In this document: in pieces, positions 41,697 to 61,493 of the stretch | How positions within the stretch are numbered: position 1 is the first letter of the stretch | Layout: the number at the start of each line of letters is the position of its first letter | NCBI GenBank assembly: GCA_001792345.1 | Contig: MGGJ01000004.1 | Location: 74,090 to 138,089 of the forward strand | Direction of reading: 5' to 3' | DNA from: Candidatus Woesebacteria bacterium RIFCSPHIGHO2_01_FULL_39_32 | Lineage (GTDB): Bacteria > Patescibacteriota > Microgenomatia > UBA8517 | Length of the DNA: 64,000 nucleotides | The notes under the pieces: generated by a model | What the model was told of the DNA's origin: nothing | The model's database searches: none | Seen by the model: the letters and a program-made list of their open reading frames with translations, nothing else | Translations under genes and position numbers: made by a program

Positions 41697-41711
41697 TTAA
41701 TTTAAGAACCC

Positions 41712-41728
41712 GCGGAGGAAATGGTTTC
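41712..41728 (+). repeat. Repeat A copy 1 (GCGGAGGAAATGGTTTC)
   Basis: Between convergent genes 40725..41696 and 41729..42097. Confidence 0.85.
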
Positions 41729-42097
41729 CTATTTAGAGCTTTTTATTTGACGAACTTTATCGACCAAAAGGCCCACAAAGAAAAGCAATATGAGTGTGGC
41801 TGCATAACTAATAAGTACTACCCAAAATAAATTCTTAGAATGTGTAGCCCATGAATAATAACTCTCGGGAACTATAAAACTTAGGAAATCTACTAACAGT
41901 TTCCCTGGAATAGACAGCAAAATAATAATAGCTAGAGATATTGGAGCACAGATTACAAATATTCCACCGCTGCACTCATTAAGTAGCGGAACCAACATCG
42001 TTGCAAAACCTAAAAGAATCAAAATAATATATATCACAGGTAAACGATACCTGTACTTTAGTCCAAAAAATTTCTTAAAGAATTTCTTAATCTCCAT
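41729..42097 (-). CDS. Hypothetical 4-TM membrane protein
   Basis: 122 aa hydrophobic ORF. Confidence 0.4.
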   Translation of the reverse strand: MEIKKFFKKFFGLKYRYRLPVIYIILILLGFATMLVPLLNECSGGIFVICAPISLAIIILLSIPGKLLVDFLSFIVPESYYSWATHSKNLFWVVLISYAATLILLFFVGLLVDKVRQIKSSK

Positions 42098-42153
42098 ATA
42101 TAAGTAATATTATCACCATGTCTTGTCGAAAATGAAGGAAAACCTAGAAACTG

Positions 42154-42173
42154 TGGAATAAATGGTTTCTTAA
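42154..42173 (+). repeat. Repeat A copy 2 (degenerate: TGGAATAAATGGTTTCTTAA)
   Basis: Overlaps stop codon of RelE-like gene. Confidence 0.6.
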
Positions 42174-42434
42174 TCAATATACTTCATCATGACTCCCGAT
42201 TCTGTTAAAAAGAATCCTATTTTCTTCGATTGTAAAAATAATTCTAATATCGCTTGTTATTGAAATAGACCAGTTATTTTCCCCGGACAACTTATGAAGC
42301 CGTAACGATGGGTGTTTAGGATTGGTTGATAGAAGTTCAATTTGATGTCTAAGCTTAATTTTTAATTTAGGATTATTCTTGACTATTTTCTTTAAATTCC
42401 TATCAAAAGTTCTTGAGAAATAAACTTCGTACAT
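42174..42434 (-). CDS. Type II toxin, RelE/ParE superfamily
   Basis: 86 aa; ...LHKLSGENNWSISITSDIRIIFTIEENRILFNRIGSHDEVY matches RelE/ParE C-terminal consensus. Confidence 0.7.
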   Translation of the reverse strand: MYEVYFSRTFDRNLKKIVKNNPKLKIKLRHQIELLSTNPKHPSLRLHKLSGENNWSISITSDIRIIFTIEENRILFNRIGSHDEVY

Positions 42435-42465
42435 CTACTAAAATTATATAATAAATTACTCTACC

Positions 42466-42699
42466 CTAAATTGAGTCGAAGTATTTTTTTATATCCTTTT
42501 TTGTCTTTAGTGTAATAGCTTTTCCTTCTTTTATTTCTTTCCTGGTTTCCTCTGCCCACAAATCGTATTTACTTTGAGATATAACCTTTCTCAAGGAATC
42601 ACGGACAAGGTCGCTAAAAGAAGCATAAAAGCCTCCTCTTACAAGGGTTTCAGCTTGATTTTTCAATTTTTCGGGTAAAGATACATTTATTGTAACCAT
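42466..42699 (-). CDS. Ribbon-helix-helix antitoxin, ParD/CopG-like
   Basis: MVTINVSLPEKLKNQAETLVRGGFYASFSDLVRDSLRKV matches ParD family; start set at internal Met of ORF 42466..42714; 31 bp upstream of toxin gene. Confidence 0.65.
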   Translation of the reverse strand: MVTINVSLPEKLKNQAETLVRGGFYASFSDLVRDSLRKVISQSKYDLWAEETRKEIKEGKAITLKTKKDIKKYFDSI

Positions 42700-42753
42700 A
42701 CAACAATAATACAATCTTCGTACAATAAGTCAATATATAAAATTACTTAAGTT

Positions 42754-42773
42754 GCGGAGGAAATGGGTTTCTA
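42754..42773 (+). repeat. Repeat A copy 3 (GCGGAGGAAATGGGTTTCTA)
   Basis: Overlaps stop of peptidase gene; one-base insertion. Confidence 0.8.
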
Positions 42774-43394
42774 ATTGTTGTTAAACAAACCTTCAAAATT
42801 AAAATCTACAAACTTTTTATTTCTCTCGTCATACAATTTCGTTTCATTCTCTTTAAGCTTTAAAATATTAAGTCCCTTTTGCTCTGCAAATTTTTCGACT
42901 ATTTCTATTAACTCTTCATTACAATAATTAGAGTTATTAGTGTGGACAATCACTATAGTTTCACTGTCAGGAAATATACCTTCAATAAAGTCGATGGTCT
43001 TTCTGTCGCTTGTTTCATAAAAATATGGAGCCATAAGCATTGCACCGGCACTGTCACCAAGAATAACTATATCTTTCTTAAGAACACCGAAATCAAATCT
43101 TTTCCTTTGAAGGCCATCTTTTAAAGGAATAGTATCACCGCCGCAAAGAAAAATAAGATCGTAAATTCGCCAATTAATATCTTTAGTTTTATTCCCAACA
43201 ATATCTACTGTTTCTCCAAATTGAGGAATTATATGCTTATCGTAATAATGATTAGGCTTAGCCATTGTTACAAAACAGGTCTTTTTCCCTTTGGCAATTA
43301 GTTTCTTGATCGTTTTGGAGTATTCGTAGAGATAAGATTTTTCAAAACCATTAGGTTCATTTTTATTTAGCCCACCCCGAAATATAAGTTTCAT
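42771..43394 (-). CDS. Peptidase S51-like (dipeptidase E / cyanophycinase family)
   Basis: 207 aa; IFLCGGDT...IVILGDSAGAML matches S51 nucleophile-Ser region. Confidence 0.55.
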   Translation of the reverse strand: MKLIFRGGLNKNEPNGFEKSYLYEYSKTIKKLIAKGKKTCFVTMAKPNHYYDKHIIPQFGETVDIVGNKTKDINWRIYDLIFLCGGDTIPLKDGLQRKRFDFGVLKKDIVILGDSAGAMLMAPYFYETSDRKTIDFIEGIFPDSETIVIVHTNNSNYCNEELIEIVEKFAEQKGLNILKLKENETKLYDERNKKFVDFNFEGLFNNN

Positions 43395-43432
43395 AATCGT
43401 AGTATATCAATTTGGAGAATTTTCCAGAAGCC

Positions 43433-43449
43433 GCGGAGGAGATTGTTTC
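43433..43449 (+). repeat. Repeat A copy 4 (GCGGAGGAGATTGTTTC)
   Basis: In divergent intergenic region. Confidence 0.7.
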
Positions 43450-43481
43450 GGATTATCCTTATCAAGTGTTAAAATCGAAAT

Positions 43482-43751
43482 ATGGATAAATTACATAAAC
43501 TGGAGGAAAAAATAGAGAAAATTGAATCCAGAAATAGAAAGGTCGAAAACGATAAAGCTTGGGAAACAAGTTATGCAAGAAGGTTCTTACTATTCTTTTT
43601 TACTTATGTGTCAATCGGTCTTTATCTCAATGTAATTCAAATCAAAGACCCATGGCTTAATGCAATAGTTCCATCAATAGGATTCTTCCTTTCGACTCTC
43701 ACTCTCCCCTTCTTCAAATCTACTTGGCTAAAGAAAAGAAATAAAAGATAA
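43482..43751 (+). CDS. Small 2-TM membrane protein with N-terminal coiled-coil (paralog 1)
   Basis: 89 aa; ~80% aa identity to 52260..52532. Confidence 0.5.
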   Translation: MDKLHKLEEKIEKIESRNRKVENDKAWETSYARRFLLFFFTYVSIGLYLNVIQIKDPWLNAIVPSIGFFLSTLTLPFFKSTWLKKRNKR

Positions 43752-43759
43752 CTTTGGCC

Positions 43760-43776
43760 GCGGAGGAAATGGTTTC
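43760..43776 (+). repeat. Repeat A copy 5 (GCGGAGGAAATGGTTTC)
   Basis: 9 bp after stop of paralog 1. Confidence 0.85.
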
Positions 43777-43797
43777 GGTTTCTTATATACTAAGTTA

Positions 43798-44082
43798 ATG
43801 AATAAATATTTGCGTTATTTATTTGTCCTGATATTTATTTTCTCTCTCTATCACTTTTTGAGAGATTTACTACAGACATTTAGCGTCGATAATTTCTTTA
43901 TAAACATTCTTCACAGACCCCACATCTGGTGTAGTCCGTATTGCAATTATGTAACCTATCCCCTGGACACGCTTGGAATTGTAGGCAGTTTTATCGTGTT
44001 AAGAAGAAACCGCGTGGGAATTCTGGGTGTGCTTATTTTTATATCCTTACCTCTTTGGTCGCTTGCTGTATTATTACCTTAG
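43798..44082 (+). CDS. Small 3-TM membrane protein
   Basis: 94 aa hydrophobic ORF. Confidence 0.4.
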   Translation: MNKYLRYLFVLIFIFSLYHFLRDLLQTFSVDNFFINILHRPHIWCSPYCNYVTYPLDTLGIVGSFIVLRRNRVGILGVLIFISLPLWSLAVLLP

Positions 44083-44098
44083 AAAATTTTTTTAACCA

Positions 44099-44115
44099 GC
44101 GGAGAAAATGGTTTC
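44099..44115 (+). repeat. Repeat A copy 6 (GCGGAGAAAATGGTTTC)
   Basis: 17 bp after preceding stop; followed by TATAAT 13 nt before next ATG. Confidence 0.75.
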
Positions 44116-44155
44116 TTCTTTATAATTATATTTAAAATGCTTATAATATTTGTAA

Positions 44156-44710
44156 ATGTTTCAAGAAAATTCGGCCGAACGTCGTCCTAAATTTTCCGCA
44201 TCTGTAGGTGTTATTCCTTTATATGAAAGTCCAGATGGATCAAAAGGTGTGGTTTTGGGCTTAAGAATTGAGGATGGCTTATGGACTCCTATAGCGGGCG
44301 GTCTCGAAAATCAGGAGTATGACTTGGAAGCTTTATGCAGAGAATGGCAAGAAGAAACAGGATTAAATCCAGAAGAATCTCTACAATTATTTCCCATTCC
44401 ACTTACAACAACTTCGCCGCAGCCAGGAAAAACTTCTGTCGGCATAACATATATCGGAAAATATACTGGCCCAGCGTTACCTTTAAGAGCTTGGGGCGAT
44501 GAAATAGAAGTACTTGAATCATTCGCGCCAGAAAGATTAAAAAATCTATTAGACAATCCTGAAGGCCACCTTTTTCGTCCTGACTTAAATTTAGGTAACT
44601 TAACAGCGATCCTGACTCTTTTATCACCAAATGACGGGGTGCAAACAATATTATTGAATAGAGCACGACAATCCACCCAAAGATTCATTAAAGAGGATAC
44701 ATATTTCTAA
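44156..44710 (+). CDS. NUDIX-family hydrolase (divergent)
   Basis: 184 aa; GGLENQEYDLEALCREWQEETGL Nudix-box-like. Confidence 0.55.
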   Translation: MFQENSAERRPKFSASVGVIPLYESPDGSKGVVLGLRIEDGLWTPIAGGLENQEYDLEALCREWQEETGLNPEESLQLFPIPLTTTSPQPGKTSVGITYIGKYTGPALPLRAWGDEIEVLESFAPERLKNLLDNPEGHLFRPDLNLGNLTAILTLLSPNDGVQTILLNRARQSTQRFIKEDTYF

Positions 44711-44715
44711 AAACC

Positions 44716-44732
44716 GCGAAGGAAATGGTTTC
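44716..44732 (+). repeat. Repeat A copy 7 (GCGAAGGAAATGGTTTC)
   Basis: 6 bp after NUDIX stop; followed 19 bp later by repeat B copy 1. Confidence 0.8.
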
Positions 44733-44751
44733 TTAAGATTTTTTATTCGAA

Positions 44752-44770
44752 GCTAATTTGAAGACAAATT
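44752..44770 (+). repeat. Repeat B copy 1 (GCTAATTTGAAGACAAATT)
   Basis: Just 3' of minus-strand nitrilase gene. Confidence 0.85.
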
Positions 44771-44772
44771 AT

Positions 44773-45552
44773 TTATTTTATTTCTAGTTTCTTTTTTGGC
44801 TGCCACCAGGAATCAAACTCTCGAGCCTTTGTAACCTCATCCAAATCCAACTCTTCATAAAGAATCTCTTTGTGATTAATGCTCCCTTCCTTTAAAACCC
44901 CTCTTATAGGACTTACAATCAATGACCTTCCGAAAGAGTTTGTCGCTATATTTAAATTACCCGATACTAAAATAAAAGACCTGCTCGCAAAAGCACCATA
45001 TACATATAGCGCTTTTACATACTCTTGAGTGTTCAATTCCTTCCAGCCAATCGACCATGTAGGAATACAAATAATTTCGGCGCCTTGATTGTTAAATTTC
45101 TCATATAAAAAATGTGAGAACTTGTTGAAGCCATCCTTGCAAATAAGCATCCCTAATTTTCCTATTTCTGTTTTTTCGACCTCTAAAGTATTCCCGGCAA
45201 CAACTCCAATGTTTTCTATTTCAGGTTTTGCTGGGTAAATTTTTCTGTGCGATACAACGGATTTTCCTTCAGGAGAAATAATATAGCCTTGGTTATAATA
45301 CTTGCCGTCTTTTTTAGTGTAAAAACTTGTCGCGAGAAAAACACTGTGTTTCTTTGCAACTTCTATGAGTTTCGGCAAATAATCTATTTCTTTTTCCTTC
45401 AACTCCCCAACTTCTCCGACGGCAGTTTCTGGAGCAACTATTAATTTTGCACCTGCCCACGAAGCCTGTGAAACCATTTCGTTAAGTTTCTTAAAGGAAG
45501 CACTAGATTCTTCGGGAGCGTCGTATTGTAGAACTGCAACTTTAACTTTCAT
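44773..45552 (-). CDS. Carbon-nitrogen hydrolase (nitrilase superfamily)
   Basis: 259 aa; E (APET), K (HRKIY), C (LICKDG) catalytic triad spacing. Confidence 0.8.
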   Translation of the reverse strand: MKVKVAVLQYDAPEESSASFKKLNEMVSQASWAGAKLIVAPETAVGEVGELKEKEIDYLPKLIEVAKKHSVFLATSFYTKKDGKYYNQGYIISPEGKSVVSHRKIYPAKPEIENIGVVAGNTLEVEKTEIGKLGMLICKDGFNKFSHFLYEKFNNQGAEIICIPTWSIGWKELNTQEYVKALYVYGAFASRSFILVSGNLNIATNSFGRSLIVSPIRGVLKEGSINHKEILYEELDLDEVTKAREFDSWWQPKKKLEIK

Positions 45553-45572
45553 TAACCAAATTCTACTCCGGA

Positions 45573-45591
45573 GCTAATTTGAAGACAAATT
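45573..45591 (+). repeat. Repeat B copy 2
   Basis: 20 bp upstream of nitrilase start. Confidence 0.85.
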
Positions 45592-45595
45592 TATC

Positions 45596-45904
45596 CTAAG
45601 CTGACTGAATTTCAAACTTAGTTTTTTTAGGATCGAAGGCTTTAATATTTTTCTTTACGTCCAATATTTCAATCCCTAAAATTTTACCCTTAGCATCTTC
45701 GTCCACTAAAACAGTATCCGTTACTTTTCTGGTTCGGCTATATTTTCCTTTTGCTAATTCCAAATAAACTGCGTCTTCTTTTTTATCGTATTGTATTTTC
45801 ATAATTATTTTTTCAGGATTATCAATTGTTTCTGTTACAGTCTTTTGAGAAATATTTCTCCTTTTAAGTTGCTTTATGGCATGTCCAGAAAAGTTGACGG
45901 GCAT
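45596..45904 (-). CDS. Fused DUF4258-like (short N-terminal) / DUF2283-like (C-terminal) small protein; TA-related
   Basis: 102 aa; C-terminal MKIQYDKKEDAVYLELAKG...KILGIEIL matches DUF2283; N-terminal FSGHAIKQLKRRNIS resembles DUF4258. Confidence 0.5.
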   Translation of the reverse strand: MPVNFSGHAIKQLKRRNISQKTVTETIDNPEKIIMKIQYDKKEDAVYLELAKGKYSRTRKVTDTVLVDEDAKGKILGIEILDVKKNIKAFDPKKTKFEIQSA

Positions 45905-45926
45905 AAAAACATTATAAAATAATCTC

Positions 45927-45949
45927 GGAGTTAATTTGAAAACAAACTT
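45927..45949 (+). repeat. Repeat B copy 3 (degenerate)
   Basis: GGAGTTAATTTGAAAACAAACTT, 3 mismatches. Confidence 0.6.
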
Positions 45950-45967
45950 TAAACATCGTATTTGAAA

Positions 45968-46552
45968 TTAGTAACCCCAGGCCTTCCTCTTCCCTGCTTT
46001 CATAATATTCCACGAACCATCCTGTTGGCGCATCATTACATAATAAGACGGTCTTTTAAAGCTCGAGTGTTCTTCATCACCAAGTCTAATTTCTAATAAC
46101 TTTGGTACATATGGCTCCGGAACTTTACCTAATATATCTGTTGAAATTGCTTTAACTTCCTTCGCTCTAAGAAAATCCGTGGAGATATTATAGTCAAGCT
46201 TCTCAACCACACCTTTTGAATCAAACCATAACTGTGCGCCAGTTAACTCATACTCACTTTCCCTCTCTAATAATACTGCTGCTGCCTTCGAATCGTCCAA
46301 CTCCCCCAATCCAAAGTAACCCTTTTGTTCGATTAAGACATCTGCGTGTGTTCCCTTTGGAAATAGTCCAGAAGCTACTTTATCTTTAGAAATTCGAGCA
46401 AGACAAGAAATATAACCCGGAAACTTACCAATGACAGCGCCTCGACCTTCACGAATTAATCCTTGCCACTCACCTTCAGTTAATAAACGGTTATAAAAAG
46501 GTCTGGGGGCAACATCTATTCCCGCTTGGATTTCCTCTGAATCTAAAACCAT
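45968..46552 (-). CDS. Hypothetical protein (194 aa)
   Basis: ORF only. Confidence 0.45.
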   Translation of the reverse strand: MVLDSEEIQAGIDVAPRPFYNRLLTEGEWQGLIREGRGAVIGKFPGYISCLARISKDKVASGLFPKGTHADVLIEQKGYFGLGELDDSKAAAVLLERESEYELTGAQLWFDSKGVVEKLDYNISTDFLRAKEVKAISTDILGKVPEPYVPKLLEIRLGDEEHSSFKRPSYYVMMRQQDGSWNIMKAGKRKAWGY

Positions 46553-46578
46553 TTCAACCTTATTATACCTCTCTAGAA

Positions 46579-46597
46579 GCTAATTTGAAGACAAATT
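46579..46597 (+). repeat. Repeat B copy 4
   Basis: 27 bp upstream of start of 45968..46552. Confidence 0.85.
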
Positions 46598-46675
46598 ATT
46601 TTAGTTTTGTCATAATAATACATAAGGTGTTACTTTATTTTGAGCTAAAATCCAATACCTGTGTTAAATTAACAT

Positions 46676-47287
46676 ATGTTTTTATTGAAGAAGTATTATT
46701 GGGAAGTCAAAGAAACAAAAAGTAAAGGAAGGGGTGTTTTCGCAAGGAAACCAATTTCGGCAGGCACACTTATTGGCGATTACGTTGGAAAATTGGTTCA
46801 CTTGAAAGATGTAGATTTTGATAAAGAAAAAGGAAATCTGTATCTGATGTATTACAATGACACAACAGGTATTTACCCCAGCTTAAGAAAACCGGGCATT
46901 CATCTTCTAAATCATTCGTGTTCTCCTAATTGCTGGATTTTTAAATTTAAAAGACACACTTTGGTTTTTGCATTAAAGAATATTATGAATGGAGACGAGT
47001 TGACAATTTCTTACCTCCTTCCTCCAGGTAAGCTTTGTACGAACTGCACACATAAATGCTTCTGCGAAAGCAAGGTTTGTACAAAATCGATGCATTTAAC
47101 GGAAGGTGGATATAAAAAATGGCAGGATTTTCAAGATAAAGAAGAAAGGAAAGGAAAATATAGAAAAATTATAAATGAAAACGCATTAAAACTGTTGGCA
47201 AAATATCCGAAATCTATTTCCAAAAGTTATATTGTAAAAATTAAAAATTTAGAGATTACACAAAACCTTTCCATCTCGCTAATTTGA
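46676..47287 (+). CDS. SET-domain protein (lysine methyltransferase-like)
   Basis: 203 aa; LLNHSCSPNC SET signature and post-SET Cys cluster; its TGA stop lies inside repeat B copy 5. Confidence 0.75.
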   Translation: MFLLKKYYWEVKETKSKGRGVFARKPISAGTLIGDYVGKLVHLKDVDFDKEKGNLYLMYYNDTTGIYPSLRKPGIHLLNHSCSPNCWIFKFKRHTLVFALKNIMNGDELTISYLLPPGKLCTNCTHKCFCESKVCTKSMHLTEGGYKKWQDFQDKEERKGKYRKIINENALKLLAKYPKSISKSYIVKIKNLEITQNLSISLI

Positions 47288-47296
47288 AGACAAATT
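47278..47296 (+). repeat. Repeat B copy 5
   Basis: Overlaps stop codon of SET gene. Confidence 0.85.
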
Positions 47297-47308
47297 TATT
47301 TTGTTAAA

Positions 47309-48160
47309 CTAAACAGCAAGAATCACCAGTCCCAACATTAACAAAAATATACCGATTTTCTGCTCTTTTGCTAACTTTTCCTTCAGAAAAAGTAGCGCCA
47401 AGAATATTGTCACAACAGGCGCCGCAGCAACAACTGGCGCAACGATAGATGCATAAGTACTATTTACACCCAAAGAGTAACCAAGATAACCCATACTACT
47501 TAGTATTCCCAAAAGTGCAGCTAGTTTATAAGAATAATTAGTAATAGATAAACTTTTTTCTTTATATAAAGTAAGTATAGTTAAAAACAACACACCCGAG
47601 ATGGTTGTGAGAATAATTATCTCTAACCAACCAATTTTAACGGTCATATCACCTATTAAGATAAATGACGTACCCCAAAAGAACATTGCTAACAGACCAT
47701 ATGGAACTGATCTATCAGTGATTACTAGCTTAAGATTTTTGAAATTTTTTAAATTTATTGAAACCAATATAGTCCCGACAACAACAAGTACAACAGAACC
47801 AACTTGAATTGGCAAAAGAATTTCAGAAAGAAATAATATTGAAAAAAGAATTATTATCACCGAATAAGAAGAAGCTATCGGAGACAAAACCGATAGATTA
47901 CCAACTTGCGTCCCTTTGAAAAAAGAAAGACCCCCTAAAGTAGTTATTATTCCCGCAATAAAACCTACGACAAACTCTCCGGTACTTATTTCAAAAAGGT
48001 TTGTTGTTCGACCGGAAACAAACGAAATACATAAAAGGTAGAAAAGCATGAAGATGGCATTCCACAACATTCCTTTTAAGAATCCTGCAGATTTAGAAAG
48101 AAATACTATAACATAATCGGCGACTCCAAAACCCACAAGTCCTATCAATGCATAAACCAT
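47309..48160 (-). CDS. EamA/DMT-superfamily transporter
   Basis: 283 aa, 10 TM, duplicated EamA-like halves. Confidence 0.7.
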   Translation of the reverse strand: MVYALIGLVGFGVADYVIVFLSKSAGFLKGMLWNAIFMLFYLLCISFVSGRTTNLFEISTGEFVVGFIAGIITTLGGLSFFKGTQVGNLSVLSPIASSYSVIIILFSILFLSEILLPIQVGSVVLVVVGTILVSINLKNFKNLKLVITDRSVPYGLLAMFFWGTSFILIGDMTVKIGWLEIIILTTISGVLFLTILTLYKEKSLSITNYSYKLAALLGILSSMGYLGYSLGVNSTYASIVAPVVAAAPVVTIFLALLFLKEKLAKEQKIGIFLLMLGLVILAV

Positions 48161-48179
48161 ATATTAATATTACCCCGAA

Positions 48180-48198
48180 GCTAATTTGAAGACAAATT
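48180..48198 (+). repeat. Repeat B copy 6
   Basis: 19 bp upstream of start of 47309..48160. Confidence 0.85.
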
Positions 48199-48246
48199 AT
48201 TAACAGACTGTTCTTACTAACAATTAAATATTGATATAATCAAATC

Positions 48247-49110
48247 ATGTCGGGAGTAATAGCAGCAATTTATTCCTCATTTTTTCTCGCATTATCTCAA
48301 GCTTCTTTGAAAAAAAGCTACAGGGAACTTTCTCCATCTGTTGCATTTTTCTTTGACACCCTTTTTGGTTTAGCTCTTTGGGTACCTCTAGCATTATTCT
48401 TCGGCATCAATCTGATATTCTTCAAAGAGGTCCTTTTATTTGCAGTTCTATCAGCAGTTTTATCCGAAGCATTATATTTTTATGCGCTATCTAAAGGACA
48501 GTTAAGCGTAACCACAATTCTTATTGGTAGCTACCCGATTTATACTATTTTGTTTTCTTATTTGATCAATAGAGAGATATTAACTCCGTTACAAGCATTA
48601 TTTATCGGAATAACAATCTTCGGAACACTAATTTCATACCTGCCTTCAAAATTAAACAAAGATGAATTGAAAAAAAGCGGCGTTCTGATATGGCCAATAA
48701 TAGCGGCGGTTGCAGTTGGTTTATCTGATACCTTGTCCAAGAAAATTATAAACAAAACTGAAGATTTTACGTTTCTTTTTGCACTAGCCCTAGTCCAAAT
48801 ACCGGTTTCGCTGACATACCTAAAACTTGAAAGGCAAAATATTATAAAAGAGCTAAAAGTAGTAAAAGCAAAAGCATATGATTATAAAAATGCAATAGCC
48901 GGATCACTGTTTAATATTATCGGCACTGGGCTTCTGTGGATCGCCTTTTCAAAGACTCTTGCTTCGATTGCTTCTCCGATAACTGCTACAAGCGGGGTTT
49001 TGGTAATTATAATTGCACTACTTTTTCTTGACGAGAAAATATCATTAAAACAAATAGCCGGAATATTTTTAGTCATTCTGGGTATAATTGGAATTGCGAT
49101 TCTAGTTTAA
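48247..49110 (+). CDS. EamA/DMT-superfamily transporter
   Basis: 287 aa, 10 TM. Confidence 0.7.
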   Translation: MSGVIAAIYSSFFLALSQASLKKSYRELSPSVAFFFDTLFGLALWVPLALFFGINLIFFKEVLLFAVLSAVLSEALYFYALSKGQLSVTTILIGSYPIYTILFSYLINREILTPLQALFIGITIFGTLISYLPSKLNKDELKKSGVLIWPIIAAVAVGLSDTLSKKIINKTEDFTFLFALALVQIPVSLTYLKLERQNIIKELKVVKAKAYDYKNAIAGSLFNIIGTGLLWIAFSKTLASIASPITATSGVLVIIIALLFLDEKISLKQIAGIFLVILGIIGIAILV

Positions 49111-49113
49111 AAT

Positions 49114-49584
49114 ATGCAGAAAAATCAAATTGTTTCATATTCAGGAATAGAGGGTCTACTTAAAGTAACCCAAAATTCTCTCAGCGCAGAAGGAGAGCTT
49201 CTAATTTTTGAAACTAGTTATGCATCACTAAACGACATGTTTACTAAAGATCAGGCGGAAGAAATCAGAAATGAATTTGTAAACAAGAAAATTAAAATTA
49301 GAGAGCTGACAAATCATGCTTATCACGAAACATACACTCATGTTAGGGATTTTCATGAAAAAGTAATGAATATTCGTTACATAAACCCAAACAGGCTTCA
49401 AATTAAAGTAGAAACGCTTATATATAATAATGTCGTGGCATTATACGAGCCCAAAAAAGACGGTTTCTGCCTTGAAATTTACAGCAAAGAGTTGGCCGAT
49501 CAACAAAGACAACTATTTGAATTTATTTGGAAACAAGCAGATAGACCAATAATCGGTAAGGGTGGTAGGACTTCTATTTTCTAG
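49114..49584 (+). CDS. Hypothetical protein (156 aa)
   Basis: 3 nt after transporter stop, likely co-transcribed. Confidence 0.45.
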   Translation: MQKNQIVSYSGIEGLLKVTQNSLSAEGELLIFETSYASLNDMFTKDQAEEIRNEFVNKKIKIRELTNHAYHETYTHVRDFHEKVMNIRYINPNRLQIKVETLIYNNVVALYEPKKDGFCLEIYSKELADQQRQLFEFIWKQADRPIIGKGGRTSIF

Positions 49585-49586
49585 GA

Positions 49587-49605
49587 GCTAATTTGAAGAC
49601 AAATT
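49587..49605 (+). repeat. Repeat B copy 7
   Basis: Starts 2 nt after stop of 49114..49584. Confidence 0.85.
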
Positions 49606-49610
49606 ACCGA

Positions 49611-49985
49611 TTATAGGTAGTAAGCTACCTCTATCTTTATTCTGTCAGGATCTTCGAAATATACTGCATAGTACCCCTCTTCATATTCAGGAAAGGGTTT
49701 TGGTGTGTCGTATAAAGTAGGAATTTTATTAGGTTTAAGAAATTCGTTACAGAATTTATCAACATCTTCCTTGGAGTTTACCCTGAATGCTATATGGTTT
49801 AATCCAACTCTTTTTCTGTGGAAACCTTTAATAACGTATTTTCCCTCTGCCTGATCAAACCAGATGGTCGTTCCCCCATTCATAAAGGCAAATACCTTCT
49901 TCTCATTAACAATTTCCTTATAGTCTAAAAGGGTAAGGAGTTTGTTATAGAAATTATAAGATTTGTTTAAATCTGAAACGTACAA
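49611..49985 (-). CDS. VOC-family protein (glyoxalase/bleomycin-resistance/dioxygenase fold)
   Basis: 124 aa; GLNHIAFRV and paired betaalphabetabetabeta modules; TTG start in ORF track. Confidence 0.65.
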   Translation of the reverse strand: MYVSDLNKSYNFYNKLLTLLDYKEIVNEKKVFAFMNGGTTIWFDQAEGKYVIKGFHRKRVGLNHIAFRVNSKEDVDKFCNEFLKPNKIPTLYDTPKPFPEYEEGYYAVYFEDPDRIKIEVAYYL

Positions 49986-50031
49986 GTTGATATGTCCGAC
50001 TGTAGATTTTATAAAACTATTTTATCCCAGA

Positions 50032-50050
50032 GCTAATTCGAAGACAAATT
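50032..50050 (+). repeat. Repeat B copy 8 (GCTAATTCGAAGACAAATT)
   Basis: 1 mismatch. Confidence 0.75.
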
Positions 50051-50159
50051 GTTTCAGATTTTTGACACTGGTTAATTTTATCTATTCTCCTCAACCCCTA
50101 CCAGTCTTGGTTTCTTCACTTTCTCGTTTGAAATCTTATTGATGTCTCTGACATTTAGA

Positions 50160-50813
50160 CTACCTAGAAAGTCTTTCTAATAAACCATATTCAACATACC
50201 AAGGAAAAACTCCATCCTCAGGATAAATAAATTCGTGAGGACCAATCTCCATGGAAGGTTTTTTAAAAGAACGTACGCCTCGCGGCTCTCTTAATTGGTA
50301 CCCTGTTAATTGCCGTACGACTTCTATTTCTTCATCGGATAACCCAAGTGTTATGGTTTGCCTATCAAACTCTCTTGAAGAGTGTCTAATTGTGAGAGGA
50401 CTTCCGCGCAAATTAATAACTGTGCGTTTGTCATTTACTGTAATTCTATAACAATATTCAAGCACTGCCCTGAGCCGCGATTGCATAGGCTGAGCGTATT
50501 CTTCGGCTTTAACAATATCTTCAGTATTCACCACATGTACGCCATCGATGTCGCTTCCATTATTTGCTTCACCGTGCGCTATTGAACCATACACAAACAT
50601 GCCTCTATATTCCGGATTTATAGACATTTCTTCTAATACTAAACTTCCTAAGATACTTCTGACCGAATGTTGATCTTGCAAATCAAGAGCATCTGGGAGT
50701 TCTACATGAGTTAAAAATGATACATCAGGAATACGTATTTTATCCGGATATACAAAAAGTGGTTTTTCTGGAAGTATTCGTTTTTCTTGTCCTGATTCTT
50801 CGTCACCAACCAT
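50160..50813 (-). CDS. Nucleotidyltransferase-fold protein (minimal NTase, ANT/Lnu-like)
   Basis: 217 aa; YGSIAHGEANNGSDIDGVHVV fits hG[GS]x9-13DhD NTase motif. Confidence 0.5.
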   Translation of the reverse strand: MVGDEESGQEKRILPEKPLFVYPDKIRIPDVSFLTHVELPDALDLQDQHSVRSILGSLVLEEMSINPEYRGMFVYGSIAHGEANNGSDIDGVHVVNTEDIVKAEEYAQPMQSRLRAVLEYCYRITVNDKRTVINLRGSPLTIRHSSREFDRQTITLGLSDEEIEVVRQLTGYQLREPRGVRSFKKPSMEIGPHEFIYPEDGVFPWYVEYGLLERLSR

Positions 50814-50877
50814 ATTAATAAATCCAAAAGTAAAGATACATTAACGGAATTATACCAGCTTAGAATACTTAGAGAAA

Positions 50878-51363
50878 TTACCTTAGGGGAATTGAGAACC
50901 AGCGGGGAACTTTTTTCATATAGCCTGAATATTCTTTACCAAACTTCTTTTTTAGTTCGGGCTCTTCTTTGTAAATGATAACCAATTGAAAGAGGACAAC
51001 TGCAGCAAGAACATAAAAGAGAAGTAGTATGTGACCGAAAATCATAAAAACTCCTAAAAATGCCAGCAAGACGGCGGCGTACATGGGATTGCGACTATAT
51101 CCATAAAAGCCTTTGGAAATAAGTTTTTTTGGCGATTCGATAATAACTGGTGTGACTCTACCTGTTAATAAATGCTGGTGCATCGTATATAAAGTTGCCG
51201 AAAAACCAAAAAGAAAGAAAATAAATCCTAGGGTTCTTAGCAGACTGTTATCAAAAACTGGTAAATTGTAAATGACGTTGAGCCGAATTAAATATACAGG
51301 AACAACAAACCAAGCAAAGACCAAAATAAAAAGTCCGAGAAGTAATGTCAACGCACTTTTCAT
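50878..51363 (-). CDS. Isoprenylcysteine carboxyl methyltransferase (ICMT)/phospholipid methyltransferase family membrane protein
   Basis: 161 aa; GFYGYSRNPMYAAVLL motif, 4 TM. Confidence 0.7.
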   Translation of the reverse strand: MKSALTLLLGLFILVFAWFVVPVYLIRLNVIYNLPVFDNSLLRTLGFIFFLFGFSATLYTMHQHLLTGRVTPVIIESPKKLISKGFYGYSRNPMYAAVLLAFLGVFMIFGHILLLFYVLAAVVLFQLVIIYKEEPELKKKFGKEYSGYMKKVPRWFSIPLR

Positions 51364-51381
51364 TATAGTTATTATATCAAT

Positions 51382-52155
51382 TTAATTCCGCCTTTTGTGG
51401 AAGGATTTCTGATGTGCAAGGAACTTTTGAGCTTCAACCGATACTCTTTTCTTCTCCCTGTAATTAGATTTTTCAACAAAACGGTTAAATAATTTAAGTA
51501 CTTTTTCAAATCTCAGCTCTGCAATTTTAAGTCTTGAGAAATTATAGACAATGTAATCTCTGTACATATTTTTATCGGCCAAATTTATAAGTGGATGTTT
51601 TCTTCTTACTATCCTTATCATCGCGACCTCAACGTGTGGGTTTGGAATAAAGTCGTGTCGTCGAAAATTCCAAAAAATATCAATTTCAAACCATGGTTTT
51701 AATAATACCGATACCATTGAGTTCTTGTTGTCAAAAGGCATTCCAATAAATCTTCTTGCCGCTTCTTTTTGGATCACTATATAAGCTTCTAAAAAATTAT
51801 CATCGTCGGTTAATTTTCTTAAAACGCCGGAGGTTATATTGAAAGGAATGTTTGAAAAAACTTTGTAGGAGTAAGGCGGCATCCTGAAATTTAGAAAATC
51901 ACCTCGAATTAGTTCTAAGTTCTTTGCATTTTTATATTTTTCTTTTAGGTGAAAGTAAAGTTTTCTATCAAGTTCAATCGCGGTAACTCTTCCGGCAACT
52001 TTCAACAATTCTTGGGTAATAATTCCTCTACCGGGACCGATTTCGATAACTTTGTCATTTTTACCAAGAGAAGATTTCCGAATTAATTTAGCGATAAGCT
52101 TCGGATTGACAAGATTGTTCTGTGAGTAGAGCCTCCGCCTTTGTTTGTACAACAT
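51382..52155 (-). CDS. rRNA adenine N6-dimethyltransferase family (Erm/KsgA)
   Basis: 257 aa; YSQN..., VIEIGPGRG SAM motif, NIPFNITS motif IV; size and N-terminus more Erm-like than KsgA-like. Confidence 0.75.
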   Translation of the reverse strand: MLYKQRRRLYSQNNLVNPKLIAKLIRKSSLGKNDKVIEIGPGRGIITQELLKVAGRVTAIELDRKLYFHLKEKYKNAKNLELIRGDFLNFRMPPYSYKVFSNIPFNITSGVLRKLTDDDNFLEAYIVIQKEAARRFIGMPFDNKNSMVSVLLKPWFEIDIFWNFRRHDFIPNPHVEVAMIRIVRRKHPLINLADKNMYRDYIVYNFSRLKIAELRFEKVLKLFNRFVEKSNYREKKRVSVEAQKFLAHQKSFHKRRN

Positions 52156-52259
52156 AGCGGAGTCTCCTTATAATTATGGTTACCATATATTTTTCCTTCT
52201 AAAGCTAATCAGCTTTGTGTGTATTTTATCTCAAAGCCTTCTTGAAGTAAAATATAAAC

Positions 52260-52532
52260 ATGGATAAACTTCAAAAACTGGAGGAAAAAATTAGTAAAAT
52301 TGAAGCTAGGAACAGAAAAGTTGAAGCAGATAAATCTTGGGAGACGAGCTACACAAGAAGAGTTCTGCTTTTTGTTTTTACGTACATCTCAATTGGGCTT
52401 TATCTAAATGTGATTCAGGTTGAAAACCCTTGGCTTAATGCAATTGTTCCCTCAATCGGATTTTTGCTTTCAACTCTTACTCTTCCCTTCTTCAAAAACC
52501 TCTGGATGAAAAAACGAAACGGAAAAATTTAG
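52260..52532 (+). CDS. Small 2-TM membrane protein (paralog 2 of 43482..43751)
   Basis: 90 aa, ~80% identical to paralog 1. Confidence 0.5.
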   Translation: MDKLQKLEEKISKIEARNRKVEADKSWETSYTRRVLLFVFTYISIGLYLNVIQVENPWLNAIVPSIGFLLSTLTLPFFKNLWMKKRNGKI

Positions 52533-52537
52533 AGGCA

Positions 52538-52554
52538 GTAGAGGAAATGGTTTC
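52538..52554 (+). repeat. Repeat A copy 8 (GTAGAGGAAATGGTTTC)
   Basis: 6 bp after stop of paralog 2. Confidence 0.75.
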
Positions 52555-52635
52555 TTAATCCCCGTCTTAATTAATCTTGACAAACTTGTTAATAACATCT
52601 ACTGTTTTAATAGAACACTCATTTATTTCAAAAAT

Positions 52636-53526
52636 ATGGCCAAAAAGGCTAAGTCTGCAAACTTCTTTAACAAAATAATTGTTCTGGCATTGGCAGTAAT
52701 ATCCTTAGCTTTGATAACCGTTGCGACAACACAAAAACAAACCAATTACGACATAAGAACAGGGGCTACTTACAATCCAAAAATTGACCCCGATGATTTT
52801 ACTACAAACATAACAAATAAATACTTTACGCTTCCTGTCGGGAAAAAAATGGTTTATGAGGGCGATACCGAGGAGGGACGCGAAAGAATAGAAATAACAA
52901 TTCCAGGCGATAAGAAGAAAATTATGGGAGTTGAGACCCTTTTGTATCGCGACAAGGCCTGGCTCGACTCAAACGGAGACGGGAAATGGAGTAAGAAGGA
53001 GATGATTGAGGACACGCGAGATTATCTAGCCCAAAACAAGAAAACGGGTGATGTTTGGTATTTCGGCGAGGAAGTAAATAACTATGAGGATGGAGAACTT
53101 ATTGACCACGACGGTTCCTGGCTGGCGGGAGATGATAGATACCCAGGCGCATTACCTGGCATTTGGGTTAAGCAAAATCCAAAAGTAGGAGAGGTATACT
53201 TGCAGGAATTTTATAAGGGAAAAGCGGAAGATACGGTCAAAGTTTTATCAACGCATGCAACAGTAAAAACCTCGCTTGGCAAATTTAAAGACTGTTTGAG
53301 AACAAAGGACTTCACTCCGTTAGAACCCGATGCTCTGGAAAACAAATACTACTGTCCCAACGCAGTGATTAAAAATATCGGCTCAACTGTACTTATAAAA
53401 GATTTAGCAAATGATGAACAGCTGGAACTTTCTAAATTAACTGTTGGAAAAACTGACGATGACAAAGATGATGAAGACGATGACAAAGATAATGACCGTG
53501 ATGGCGATGAGGAAGAAGATGATTAG
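52636..53526 (+). CDS. Secreted protein with poly-acidic (D/E-rich) C-terminal tail
   Basis: 296 aa; N-terminal signal anchor; C-terminus DDDKDDEDDDKDNDRDGDEEEDD. Confidence 0.5.
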   Translation: MAKKAKSANFFNKIIVLALAVISLALITVATTQKQTNYDIRTGATYNPKIDPDDFTTNITNKYFTLPVGKKMVYEGDTEEGRERIEITIPGDKKKIMGVETLLYRDKAWLDSNGDGKWSKKEMIEDTRDYLAQNKKTGDVWYFGEEVNNYEDGELIDHDGSWLAGDDRYPGALPGIWVKQNPKVGEVYLQEFYKGKAEDTVKVLSTHATVKTSLGKFKDCLRTKDFTPLEPDALENKYYCPNAVIKNIGSTVLIKDLANDEQLELSKLTVGKTDDDKDDEDDDKDNDRDGDEEEDD

Positions 53527-53528
53527 GA

Positions 53529-53547
53529 GCTAATTTGAAGACAAATT
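53529..53547 (+). repeat. Repeat B copy 9
   Basis: Begins 3 nt after stop of 52636..53526. Confidence 0.85.
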
Positions 53548-53551
53548 ATTT

Positions 53552-53860
53552 TTAAATAAGCTTACTACGATGGGTTAGAATATTTCCCCATGTCATCATT
53601 TTTTCAGCCCAATCAATGGAATCTTTCGGTCCCTCTAGTCCTTCGCTTTCAAGTTGTTTATAGTGTCTGAGAAAATCTTTCAAAGTATCTTTAAAGGGAG
53701 TTCTAAATGAACTTGAATCAAGAGTTTCAATGTAATTACTCGTATTCGAAATAAAAGTTTGTATCCTTTTTCTCTTACCTAAGTAATCATCGGCTGCCCA
53801 ATTACCAATCCTGTTTAAATTCATCGCAATATCTAAAATTTTTTGTTTATTACCTGTCAT
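53552..53860 (-). CDS. Hypothetical small protein (102 aa), downstream member of overlapping gene pair
   Basis: 4-nt overlap with upstream gene. Confidence 0.4.
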   Translation of the reverse strand: MTGNKQKILDIAMNLNRIGNWAADDYLGKRKRIQTFISNTSNYIETLDSSSFRTPFKDTLKDFLRHYKQLESEGLEGPKDSIDWAEKMMTWGNILTHRSKLI

Positions 53861-54180
53861 AAAAGTAAGCTTCTGACAATCTTATCAAACCTTTTTCTAA
53901 TTTGTTTTGACATTATATCGCGGCTTGGATTATCTTGATTGGGACGCAAATTAATCATGGAGTTGTAATCAATTTCTTTCGTTTCCAAGTCCAATCCTCC
54001 ACCCCATAGATTAATTTTGTGTGAACCATCGTCCAGAAGTTCTTTTTCTTCATCAACGTGTCTATCTTCTCCCGCAGATATCATTTCGCGCTCAATGTCA
54101 ACGACAATCTTAATATATCCTTTAAAGTGTTCCGCAATTTTATTCAACTCGGACCCATTGGCCTTTCTTCTAATAATCAT
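53857..54180 (-). CDS. Hypothetical small protein (107 aa), upstream member of overlapping pair (possible TA module)
   Basis: ORF, overlap architecture. Confidence 0.4.
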   Translation of the reverse strand: MIIRRKANGSELNKIAEHFKGYIKIVVDIEREMISAGEDRHVDEEKELLDDGSHKINLWGGGLDLETKEIDYNSMINLRPNQDNPSRDIMSKQIRKRFDKIVRSLLL

Positions 54181-54212
54181 ACCTGGCTCATTTTACCACG
54201 ATTTTAAGCAAA

Positions 54213-54231
54213 GCTAATTTGAAGACAAATT
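54213..54231 (+). repeat. Repeat B copy 10
   Basis: 33 bp upstream of start of 53857..54180. Confidence 0.85.
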
Positions 54232-54245
54232 ATTTTCCCAGGTCT

Positions 54246-60336: not shown

Positions 60337-60855
60337 TCAATTAAGACTTTGTTTGATCAAGCTGACACATTCATCAATGGATAATTGTTCTGTATCTAGA
60401 CTTATTGCACCCGGAATAAATGTTCTTTCAAGTTGATTATAAATTTTCGCGATAGCTTCATCTCCCATCGGTTTGCGGCAACCCTCCTTAACGCCTGGCC
60501 GATTCCTGTCTCTGTCTTGTAAAGTGGCTAGGGAGCACATAATTTGAAAGACTTTTACCTTGATTCCTCTTTTTTCGGCTTCCTTTACTGCTAACGGGAT
60601 TATAAATGGATCAAAGAATATTTTTTCCATTACCACAGAAAAGCCGTTGTCCAATAAATATTGTAGTGTCGTCAAAGCACATTCATCGACATATCTTTGT
60701 TCCTCTAGGGAAGTATCGCCAGAAAAAAAGTCTTTCAAATTATCGACTTTCAGCCAAACGATTTTTTTATTAAAATTTCTCAACTTTTTGGCGATTGTCG
60801 TCTTTCCACTCGCCGGAGCGCCTCTAATAACGGCTAAGAATTGTTTAGAAAACAT
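60337..60855 (-). CDS. P-loop NTPase / AAA_33-type kinase
   Basis: 172 aa; Walker A GAPASGKTT. Confidence 0.6.
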   Translation of the reverse strand: MFSKQFLAVIRGAPASGKTTIAKKLRNFNKKIVWLKVDNLKDFFSGDTSLEEQRYVDECALTTLQYLLDNGFSVVMEKIFFDPFIIPLAVKEAEKRGIKVKVFQIMCSLATLQDRDRNRPGVKEGCRKPMGDEAIAKIYNQLERTFIPGAISLDTEQLSIDECVSLIKQSLN

Positions 60856-60872
60856 AAGGTTAATATTAGCAC

Positions 60873-61127
60873 TTAATTATAAACTGTCGCTCTATGACCG
60901 ACAGCAATTATTTCGACAAGTTTGTCTTTCTTATTCACTTTATAAATTACTCTAAAAACTCCAAGTTTGTAGGAAAACCTTCCAGTAAGTTCACGGGTAA
61001 GAGGTTTTCCAATGAAGGGATTTTCTTTTATTTCTTTTAGAGCCATCAATACGGCCCTTTGTCTTCTTTTTGAAATTTGCTTTAACTTTTTTCTTGCTTG
61101 AACCGAAATTCGAAGTTTATACATCAA
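60873..61127 (-). CDS. Type II toxin RelE/ParE family
   Basis: 84 aa; ...LTGRFSYKLGVFRVIYKVNKKDKLVEIIAVGHRATVY matches RelE. Confidence 0.7.
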   Translation of the reverse strand: MMYKLRISVQARKKLKQISKRRQRAVLMALKEIKENPFIGKPLTRELTGRFSYKLGVFRVIYKVNKKDKLVEIIAVGHRATVYN

Positions 61128-61392: not shown

Positions 61393-61493
61393 AACAGCAT
61401 ATTACATAATTCTGTACACTATGTCAATGATTCAAGGTTATGATTGTTCTGGCTCTCTTTAGGAATTTTGTGCTAAACTGAAATCACACTCCT

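Follow-up and report, generated by a model that had tools for sequence, protein, structure and literature searches.

The 64,000-nt window analysed here, the stretch of contig MGGJ01000004.1 from Candidatus Woesebacteria bacterium RIFCSPHIGHO2_01_FULL_39_32 shown above, contains an array of small gene cassettes that are separated by copies of two short repeats, repeat A and repeat B. The whole array extends from 41707 to 54235 and holds eight A and ten B sites, all on the + strand, which delimit about 17 cassettes with 22 genes (14 on the - strand and 8 on the + strand); the units between sites carry one to four genes each. The products comprise ParE/YafQ with a ribbon-helix-helix (RHH) antitoxin, a peptidase of family S51, NUDIX, carbon-nitrogen (CN) hydrolase, DUF2283/DUF4258 and SET proteins, two EamA transporters, a glyoxalase, a nucleotidyltransferase, PEMT, a member of the rRNA adenine dimethylase family (RrnaAD), DUF5674 and several unknowns, and a third EamA transporter gene lies just past the last B site. 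The gaps in the array are tiny, stop codons abutting or overlapping the repeats and start codons lying 17-54 nt off. The array DNA is chromosomal, with the core genes grpE, hrcA, murJ, uvrD-type helicases, rmuC and metG in its surroundings, and the absence of tRNA genes from the window gives no sign of tRNA-linked integration.

Repeat sites of the array

The copies of repeat B begin next to a copy of repeat A, from which they are separated by 21 nt; this pair is called the A-B platform below. The sites are:

44746-44774, + strand: B copy 1, the B half of the A-B platform; core at 44754-44771; 3' end abuts the stop of the CN-hydrolase gene (- strand)
45564-45594, + strand: B copy 2; - strand TTGTCT-17-TAGAAT, 7 nt, ATG (45552) of the CN hydrolase
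45922-45950, + strand: B copy 3, degenerate, 3 mismatches; - strand TTCAAA-18-TATAAT, 6 nt, ATG (45904)
46572-46601, + strand: B copy 4; - strand TTCAAA-16-TATAAT, 9 nt, ATG (46552); to the right the SET gene (+ strand) with its own promoter
47278-47298, + strand: B copy 5; SET stop TGA (47285-47287) inside the core; no - strand gene to drive
48171-48201, + strand: B copy 6; - strand TTGTCT-17-TAATAT, 6 nt, ATG (48160) of EamA
49579-49606, + strand: B copy 7, immediately after the stop of a 156-aa gene (+ strand)
50023-50053, + strand: B copy 8, 2 mismatches; - strand TTGTCT-17-TAAAAT before the glyoxalase gene
52232-52251, + strand: possible decayed B, AAGCCTTCTTGAAGTAAAAT, 14/20 matches, before the RrnaAD gene start; below profile significance; - strand TTTACT-17-TAAAAT
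53525-53551, + strand: B copy 9, a perfect 23-mer, immediately after the stop of a 296-aa gene (+ strand)
54209-54235, + strand: B copy 10, the last array site; - strand TTGTCT-16-TAAAAT before the DUF5674 gene

A preliminary description of this DNA had counted ten co-oriented B copies, and the count was borne out: a profile hidden Markov model built from 46 copies recovered ten on the + strand (E 7e-10 to 3e-5) and none elsewhere in the 64 kb. The best match to anything other than B had E>1, which leaves a clean gap between sites and noise. With up to three mismatches allowed, the B 23-mer matched eight times in the window against a chance expectation of 0.00, and the 18-nt core TAATTTGAAGACAAATTA matched ten times on the + strand and once, in an unrelated sequence with three mismatches, on the - strand (chance expectation 0.5). 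Repeat B is thus real and far beyond chance. Scanned across the window for its motif, B occurs only inside the array and at gene boundaries, and the profile search found neither A nor B sites in the other ~51 kb, outside 41.7-54.2 kb. The B copies are spaced by 354-3497 nt and the intervals are protein-coding; a CRISPR array, with repeats of 23-47 nt and non-coding spacers of 26-72 nt, was rejected on these grounds.

The placement of the copies relative to genes also agrees with the preliminary description. Its start coordinates designated the right sites at positions 2 nt too high: the 23-mer starts, for example, at 44750, 45571 and 46577, and the start of the degenerate copy is at 45928. Six copies precede minus-strand gene starts (45552, 45904, 46552, 48160, 49985 and 54180) at distances of 17-44 nt. 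Three stand at the stop codons of + strand genes, the TGA of the SET gene lying within the core and the stops at 49584 and 53526 directly before the repeat, and one follows repeat A at the transition from A to B sites (A at 44714-44732, B core at 44754). The 296-aa protein encoded before B copy 9 ends in an acidic, D/E-rich tail encoded by three tandem 21-nt units (53455-53523) that end exactly at the repeat.

In the window, B takes the form (G/A)AGC-TAATTTG-AAGA-CAAATTA, and its consensus over the 46 copies is aTTCTA-CTCCGGAGC-TAATTTG-AAGA-CAAATTA-TT. A perfect palindromic core with an asymmetric GAGC flank had been proposed; the asymmetry stands, but the conserved block is longer and more asymmetric than this implies. 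Positions AGCTAATTTGAAGACAAA, loop included, are 87-100% conserved, the outermost stem pair is missing in 21 of the 46 copies, and the centre, TTTGAAGACAAA, is the most invariant part, as would be expected if partner sites had to match in a region of exchange. GAAGAC, a BbsI-type site, is not depleted outside the repeats. The conserved B unit measures 25-33 nt, and the conserved block of the common short form, B-short, 25 nt.

A second form, B-long, was found in six copies from four related loci (loci are numbered with the prefix L):

L008, ~728-766 and 2211-2249: B-long sites
L009, 3364-3402 and 4908-4946: B-long sites
L131, 311-349: B-long site
L142, 20113-20160: B-long site

These copies read AGCTAATTTG-AAG[GACGTCAAACGTCCCAGGG]A-CAAATT, a 19-nt inner hairpin being inserted in the AAGA loop; the basal arms are kept and an inner stem of 6 bp is added, in which one difference is compensated (GGACG/CGTCC vs GGGCG/CGCCC). 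As single-stranded DNA, B-short would form a 7-bp stem with a 4-nt loop at -3.9 kcal/mol. The earlier suggestion of a small cruciform or hairpin found no statistical backing in the alignment of the 46 copies, where stem covariation was no better than in shuffled controls: 87.6% of the cells pair and there are only two double changes (TAGTTTG...CAAACTT). Covariation at shuffle level offers no statistical evidence for a conserved hairpin rather than a conserved sequence. An Rfam scan of 40-57 kb with permissive E-values returned two chance matches, neither at a repeat.

Repeat A (CCGCGGAGGAAATGGTTTC) has eight copies in the window, and one gene occurs twice together with its A site:

41707-41731, + strand: A copy 1, the first array site
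42148-42172, + strand: A copy 2, degenerate
42749-42773, + strand: A copy 3
43428-43452, + strand: A copy 4; left flank homologous to the flank of the single A beside the S51 gene in L140
43470-43776, + strand: 89-aa cassette with its downstream A site; paralogue of 52248-52554, 76% nt identity
43756-43777, + strand: A copy 5
44094-44117, + strand: A copy 6
44711-44735, + strand: A copy 7; with B copy 1 it forms the conserved A-21 nt-B platform
52248-52554, + strand: second 89/90-aa cassette with A site, inside the B array; paralogue of 43470-43776
52533-52557, + strand: A copy 8, within the B array, after the 90-aa paralogue cassette

Relatives carry A in the form GGAGGAAATGGGTTC. In some genomes a G+C-rich hairpin stands before A (L140 10748-10788 and 11440-11490), with compensated changes between its versions (CCCGCC-TCT-GGCGGG vs CCCACC-TTT-GGTGGG). 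A stretch CSGGAG-S-WAAT is common to both repeats, as CCGCGGAG-G-AAAT in A and CTCCGGAG-C-TAAT in B; we cannot tell whether it is a common recognition motif. The A-21 nt-B platform is present in four genomes (the window, L131, L006/L143 and L140). Because the 89-aa gene and its A site are present twice at 76% nt identity, they appear to have been copied or moved as one unit.

Cassette patchwork among related genomes

Fourteen loci, belonging to at least eight Woesebacteria genomes, were found by profile searches to hold another 49 copies of B and 10 of A. At every locus all copies have the same orientation, A always agreeing with B, so that none of the ~59 B copies is inverted, whatever the direction of the genes. 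Exact matches to the B 20-mer were found in Woesebacteria metagenome-assembled genomes (MAGs) of several sites, as well as in two others, labelled Gammaproteobacteria, in which the same cassettes are present. Cassette products at the related loci are mostly NUDIX (7), Gp49/HigB toxins (4), GNAT acetyltransferases (4), HAD hydrolases, DUF5615, SET and glyoxalase.

The arrays occupy several chromosomal places. The MAG GW2011_GWB1_39_12 has arrays on three contigs (L001, L002 and L009), which adjoin a response-regulator/kinase operon, PMT_2 and nrdR with a ribonucleotide reductase (RNR). The hotspot of the window, with GT2/metG on its left and the 113-aa gene and PMT_2 on its right, holds arrays of other length and content in L002, L011, L131, L142 and L143. 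Its borders in the window are:

30878-32371, + strand: GT2 glycosyltransferase, conserved left border in L011, L131, L142 and L143
55140-55926, - strand: 113-aa and 141-aa genes, conserved right border (L002, L143), followed by PMT_2 at 58914-60296

In L131 the A/B sites start directly after the GT2 gene. Several features lie in the window around the array. A 64-nt direct repeat of 86% identity (27736-27798 and 29085-29148) surrounds two unknown open reading frames (ORFs) of 163 and 182 aa, just downstream of a Trp-repressor-like gene. Within the variable hotspot, at 33632-38854, the gene for a 1740-aa alpha-2-macroglobulin-like protein (MG2, A2M, bait region, bMG10), followed by Memo-like and SDR genes, has no A/B sites at its flanks. 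Zeta-toxin/AAA_33, ParE and Phd/YefM genes (60337-61400), toxin-antitoxin (TA) modules without A/B sites, lie outside the array between PMT_2 and a 504-aa gene. On the same contig, ~4 kb past the right end of the window and near the contig end, a LAGLIDADG homing-endonuclease gene stands beside a gene for a PD-(D/E)XK protein (L147 14184-14825).

Homology among the loci is evidence that the repeats mark the junctions of exchanged units. In an all-against-all BLAST comparison, the homology blocks are one cassette long and begin and end at repeats, in otherwise different contexts. Thus the CN-hydrolase cassette of the window (44741-45588) matches L004 5732-6577 at 80% nt identity, L002 4224-4942 matches L009 2992-2279 (two arrays of one genome), L002 4978-5723 matches a cassette in L008, and L001 2135-2711 one in L109. 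The CN hydrolase, PEMT, SET, S51 and 89-aa genes all recur in other genomes with other neighbours. L008 and L009 are close relatives, with 87-92% identity in the CAAX-protease and GNAT genes on either side; between these genes lie two cassettes in L008 and five, unrelated to those, in L009.

The most direct comparison is that between the window and L140. In L140 the S51 and SET genes are adjacent, in the arrangement S51(-)-A-21 nt-B-SET(+). In the window the same two genes, with 67% and 65% aa identity respectively, stand 3.3 kb apart, as S51-A[89aa]A[94aa]A[NUDIX]A-B[CN hydrolase]B[DUF2283]B[194aa]B-SET. Homology between the two covers the sequence to the left of the first A, the linker between A and B, and the sequence to the right of the last B. 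This contrast is the footprint that would be expected of gene-plus-site units recombining with a cognate resident site, and equally of their loss between flanking sites.

The form of the site also goes with the cassette. A Gp49 cassette is accompanied by B-long in both L008 and L131, with inner stems that differ from each other and are internally compensated, and a GNAT gene has B-long in both L008 and L009. Site polymorphisms in homologous cassette pairs were too seldom informative to map the crossover; they show one trend only, in that a site is B-long or B-short according to the cassette on its 5'-flank side, whose gene start abuts it. In the window, four of the ten B copies have no gene to drive: their neighbour is repeat A or a convergent gene, whose 3' end they face. 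Among all copies, about a quarter are placed in this way against a convergent gene. Some B copies are separated from their genes by a conserved 87-nt leader (…GGATTATAATCC…CTCAGGAT…; L001 2078-2164 and 3849-3935, L010 ~3640-3700), which is 92% identical within one array and could be a shared 5' untranslated region or another small repeat.

The A/B system appears to be restricted to this clade, since a distant Candidate Phyla Radiation (CPR) genome (L148, GC 30%), Levybacteria (L144) and an Aenigmarchaeota MAG (L145) have the 89-aa gene and neither A/B sites nor an array. The 89/90-aa protein itself (43482-43751 and 52260-52532) has no Pfam match and more than 899 homologues in CPR bacteria and DPANN archaea. 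Its gene lies between ftsY and ffh (SRP54) in the Aenigmarchaeota MAG and right after PMT_2 in the Levybacteria genome, and these core contexts suggest a small membrane protein of wide conservation, whose gene is a mobile cassette in this system alone. B was absent from IMG/VR; four single matches to the A pattern in that database resembled gene starts with a Shine-Dalgarno motif and ATG, formed no arrays and were discarded. A metagenome scan with the 16-mer AATTTGAAGACAAATT was likewise set aside, the pattern being too short: about 117 of the 120 loci were chance single matches, and only L052, L109 and L131 were real.

Possible functions of the repeats and competing explanations

Most cassette genes sit on the strand opposite to the B orientation, and the complement of B reads TAATTTGTCTTCAAATTA-GCTCCGGAG-TAGAAT, followed after 6-7 nt by ATG. 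A consensus scan found TTGTCT-16/17-TARAAT or TTCAAA-16/18-TATAAT on the - strand at five window copies (45588-45560, 45940-45911, 46589-46562, 50047-50019 and 54228-54201), and a sixth match was recognised by eye at 48182. Over all genomes, TARAAT recurs at this offset in about a dozen B copies, the gene starting 6-9 nt further on; the sigma-70-type layout is missing at the four window copies whose neighbour is a convergent gene or repeat A. The genome appears to be largely leaderless, as a TAnnnT ends 4-10 nt before the start in 35 of 68 window genes, against 15% of random positions, and a Shine-Dalgarno motif precedes only 8 of the 68. Such leaderless promoter geometry would explain why B had been described as lying 19-47 bp before minus-strand starts.

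The complement of B may therefore also supply leaderless cassette genes with a -35-like hexamer, 16-18 nt from the cassette's own -10 box, which would in turn lie 6-9 nt before the start codon; promoter activity is suggested here by agreement with the consensus. The role would be secondary, because B is not required for expression. Cassette genes without B have extended -10 promoters (TGATATAAT), the TTGTCT hexamer is displaced by 19 nt in B-long, and the near-invariant "spacer" of B is more conserved than the -10 box. None of the seven terminator-like sites (G+C-rich stem and T run) in 41.5-55.5 kb coincides with A or B, and an intrinsic terminator was rejected as a candidate.

We searched for an enzyme that might act on the sites. 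Pfam was applied to every window ORF of at least 100 aa, the shorter array ORFs, 93 related-locus ORFs and nine further loci of 16-20 kb, NCBIfam to 10 unknown ORFs, and a PDB sequence search to two ORFs, including the 323-aa ORF just before the first A site. None of these searches revealed a recombinase: the window and the 20 kb beyond its two ends showed no integrase, resolvase, transposase or HUH protein, and the Pfam searches showed no RAYT (REP-associated tyrosine transposase, REP being a repetitive extragenic palindrome) or Y1 transposase gene.

On balance, we lean cautiously towards the view that B and A are recombination or attachment sites of an integron-like cassette array system specific to this Woesebacteria clade, with B doubling as part of a promoter. 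The preliminary description had proposed a site for a dimeric recombinase with polarity fixed by the flank, and among its proposals this one fits the evidence best, given the co-oriented sites, the patchwork of cassettes and the A-B platform that stands empty in a relative. It had missed the promoter-like complement of B, the arrays in other genomes of the clade, the long variants and the lack of a recombinase nearby. Units of one or two genes with one site would be inserted into, or lost from, a cognate site by conservative site-specific recombination between direct repeats, and the result would be one site per cassette boundary in a single orientation, regardless of gene direction. The A-21 nt-B pair would act as a conserved docking platform at which A-site cassettes gather at A and B-site cassettes at B. 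The site variant, either short or long with the extra apical hairpin, would travel with the cassette whose gene start abuts the site, and for this reason the exchange would probably take place towards the 3' arm of B. As none was found in the searched loci, the enzyme would have to act in trans; candidates are a Xer/Cre-type tyrosine recombinase acting on duplex DNA or an enzyme of folded single strands, IntI-like or HUH.

Several points weigh against this view. Neither the 84 kb of contig that were searched (the window and 20 kb beyond its ends) nor the 14 related loci yielded a tyrosine, serine, HUH or DDE recombinase. Repeat A is not a two-armed palindrome, and B-long would place 19 nt in the crossover spacer of a duplex tyrosine-recombinase site. 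The combination of a conserved base and a variable apex recalls attC, the integron cassette recombination site, and would be hard to reconcile with a duplex site that needs a short spacer. Some cassette junctions in relatives have no recognisable site, and the crossover position that we infer draws on a handful of comparisons. There was no direct sign of excision in the form of circular junctions or strain-level indels, and 24 contigs of the population all have the same order; the strain comparison is uninformative, as contigs with the same proteins are 99.9-100% identical in order. Moreover, repeats of 25-30 bp could serve RecA-dependent deletion or replacement, so that the empty-versus-filled pattern is no proof of an enzyme.

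Alternatively, B might be purely regulatory, a -35 region overlapped by an 18-bp palindromic operator of a dimeric repressor, while shuffling would be incidental and proceed by homologous recombination or transformation with the conserved linkers as homology arms, as in the minimal mobile elements (MMEs) of Neisseria. A repressor site had been named in the preliminary description too, and the overlap of the core with the -35-like hexamer of minus-strand promoters speaks for it, as does the promoter geometry seen at six of the ten window copies and at ~25 of all 46, the -10 box standing 6-9 nt before ATG, in an apparently largely leaderless genome. The conservation of the sequence, loop included, with no covariation signal, the lack of a recombinase nearby and a Trp-repressor-like helix-turn-helix gene syntenic with the hotspot point in the same direction. 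We nonetheless regard a purely regulatory B as unlikely, because not one of ~59 copies is inverted though about a third of the genes lie on the other strand with unrelated promoters of their own, and about a quarter of the copies, lacking a -10 box, are directed at a convergent gene's 3' end. Genes that lack B and use extended -10 promoters show it to be dispensable for expression, in B-long TTGTCT is displaced by 19 nt, and repeat A, the A-B platform and the common linker of unrelated genes are left unexplained.

The remaining explanations account for less. A selfish palindromic repeat of the REP/RAYT or MITE (miniature inverted-repeat transposable element) type, spreading by itself and piled up in a gene-poor, tolerant region, would share with B the short conserved 5' flank beside a small hairpin, the strictly extragenic location and the presence in many related genomes. 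It is quite improbable, given that 51 kb of ordinary window DNA hold no copies, that inverted pairs never occur and that exactly one copy stands at each cassette boundary with stops and -10 boxes abutting; no RAYT or Y1 transposase gene was seen in the searched loci, and no neighbouring gene pair was found that differs by the repeat alone, the differences always being whole cassettes. Were B to act in RNA, as a 3'-end stabiliser, terminator or processing hairpin between cistrons, one could point to hairpins that start 0-3 nt past the upstream stop codon in gene-sense orientation and to the long variants with their compensated inner stem. This we hold to be very improbable: at -3.9 kcal/mol the A/T stem of 7 bp is weak, a U tract is lacking, no terminator was called at any copy, neither covariation nor an Rfam match supports it, and since orientation ignores gene direction many copies would be transcribed in the wrong sense. 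An attC site is ~55-141 nt long and forms a bottom-strand bulged hairpin with R''/R' and L''/L' boxes and extrahelical bases; its terminal boxes are RYYYAAC ... GTTRRRY, with the crossover at G|TT. The idea that the array is an ordinary integron remnant, a cluster of attC sites lacking an integrase (CALIN), with B as a canonical attC acted on by an IntI encoded elsewhere, has hardly any probability. The B unit has ~25-33 nt instead of at least 55, its consensus aTTCTACTCCGGAGCTAATTTGAAGACAAATTATT lacks RYYYAAC/GTTRRRY boxes and any GTT or AAC, one stem of 7 bp leaves no room for R and L boxes with extrahelical bases, and the site stands at the 5' promoter end of most genes, not at the 3' end. 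Cassette content and site variants with a conserved base and variable apex are integron-like, and co-oriented, cassette-associated sites without an adjacent integrase do have the look of a CALIN (PMC8618304). The integron-host phyla listed in that paper, however, do not include CPR/Patescibacteria, and our literature searches found no integrons from them.

Significance and comparison with known systems

The genomes of CPR bacteria, or Patescibacteria, are tiny, mobile elements can be recognised in them only in small numbers, and little is understood of the ways in which accessory genes are acquired and shuffled. To our knowledge, no integrons have been reported from them, and our literature search found no paper that links integrons or cassette arrays with CPR, Patescibacteria or Woesebacteria. 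We tentatively raise the further possibility, doubtful as it is, that this Woesebacteria clade possesses a cassette-capture system of its own, an independent counterpart of integrons with A/B sites of at most 30 bp, a docking platform, several hotspots, sites at promoter ends and an enzyme in trans, either a host Xer-like protein or a new recombinase or HUH nuclease reading a small hairpin with a variable apex. A cassette-capture system of this kind would be the first to be described from CPR bacteria, with unusually small sites, and would widen the range of known cassette capture beyond IntI/attC; so compact a system, with sites of 25-30 bp, would explain strain-level variation of gene content at fixed hotspots. 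Should the enzyme be found, B would offer a recombination site of very small size that serves leaderless genes as a promoter as well. The pool of cassettes, with its TA modules, NUDIX, GNAT, EamA and methyltransferases, hints at what episymbiotic bacteria exchange.

Several known elements resemble parts of this arrangement. REP sequences, the substrates of RAYT enzymes (IS200-IS605-like), share with B a conserved short 5' flank beside a small extragenic hairpin and strand-specific polarity. Unlike B, which is confined to the array in the window, never inverted and flanked by GGAGC with no Y1 gene seen, they occur in hundreds of genome-wide copies, often as inverted pairs, with a 5' GTAG and a RAYT gene. 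Mycobacteriophage stoperators and T7-type promoter repeats are likewise asymmetric protein-binding sequences of 13-30 bp, present in many one-orientation copies in short intergenic gaps and overlapping promoters; they follow transcription and belong to phage genomes, whereas the repeats described here are oriented independently of genes and lie in the chromosome between core flanks, with no phage genes. In Neisseria, which is naturally transformable, MMEs and the arrays of dRS3 and neisserial intergenic mosaic elements (NIME) offer hotspots between conserved genes with alternative genes, and short repeats tied to exchange. MMEs, though, exchange through flanking-gene homology with no site per gene boundary, and NIME arrays hold no genes.

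Closer parallels exist with Xer-dependent elements, that is, with integrative mobile elements exploiting Xer (IMEX) at dif and with Acinetobacter pdif modules. Their sites are short as well, with a 28-bp core of two partly palindromic arms of about 11 bp around a central region of 6-8 bp; the gene for their recombinase lies elsewhere in the host genome, and unrelated modules accumulate between the repeats. B-short can be parsed as an 11-6-11 site (GGAGCTAATTT-GAAGAC-AAATTATTTnn) whose inner arms are palindromic and whose asymmetric centre is invariant, and a Xer-type host recombinase encoded in trans would explain the missing local enzyme. In contrast to these systems, in which pdif sites alternate in orientation and IMEX sit at a single dif, dozens of direct sites occur here at several loci; A lacks two-arm symmetry and cannot be parsed as 11-6-11, B-long has 19 extra nt in what would be its centre, and no match to the dif consensus has been demonstrated.

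From attC, B differs in its length of 25-33 nt, its one 7-bp stem with a 4-nt loop (plus one inner 6-bp stem in B-long) and its lack of R/L boxes, and neither GTT nor AAC occurs in the B consensus or in A. Integrons also differ from the present system, which has two unrelated site families in a fixed A-B platform, several arrays per genome, no intI or attI seen in the searched loci, the site at the 5' end for about two thirds of the genes, and cassettes with their own -10 boxes and leaderless promoters instead of the cassette promoter Pc. In the general properties of arrays, as summarised for sedentary integrons and CALINs (PMC8618304), the resemblance is nevertheless extensive. Small, mostly single-gene cassettes stand in tandem with one co-oriented site each, the sites are homogeneous within the lineage and the site variant is inherited with the cassette. 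TA modules, acetyltransferases, NUDIX proteins and glyoxalase figure in the cassettes, the content varies at a fixed place and, as in CALINs, some arrays stand without an adjacent integrase.

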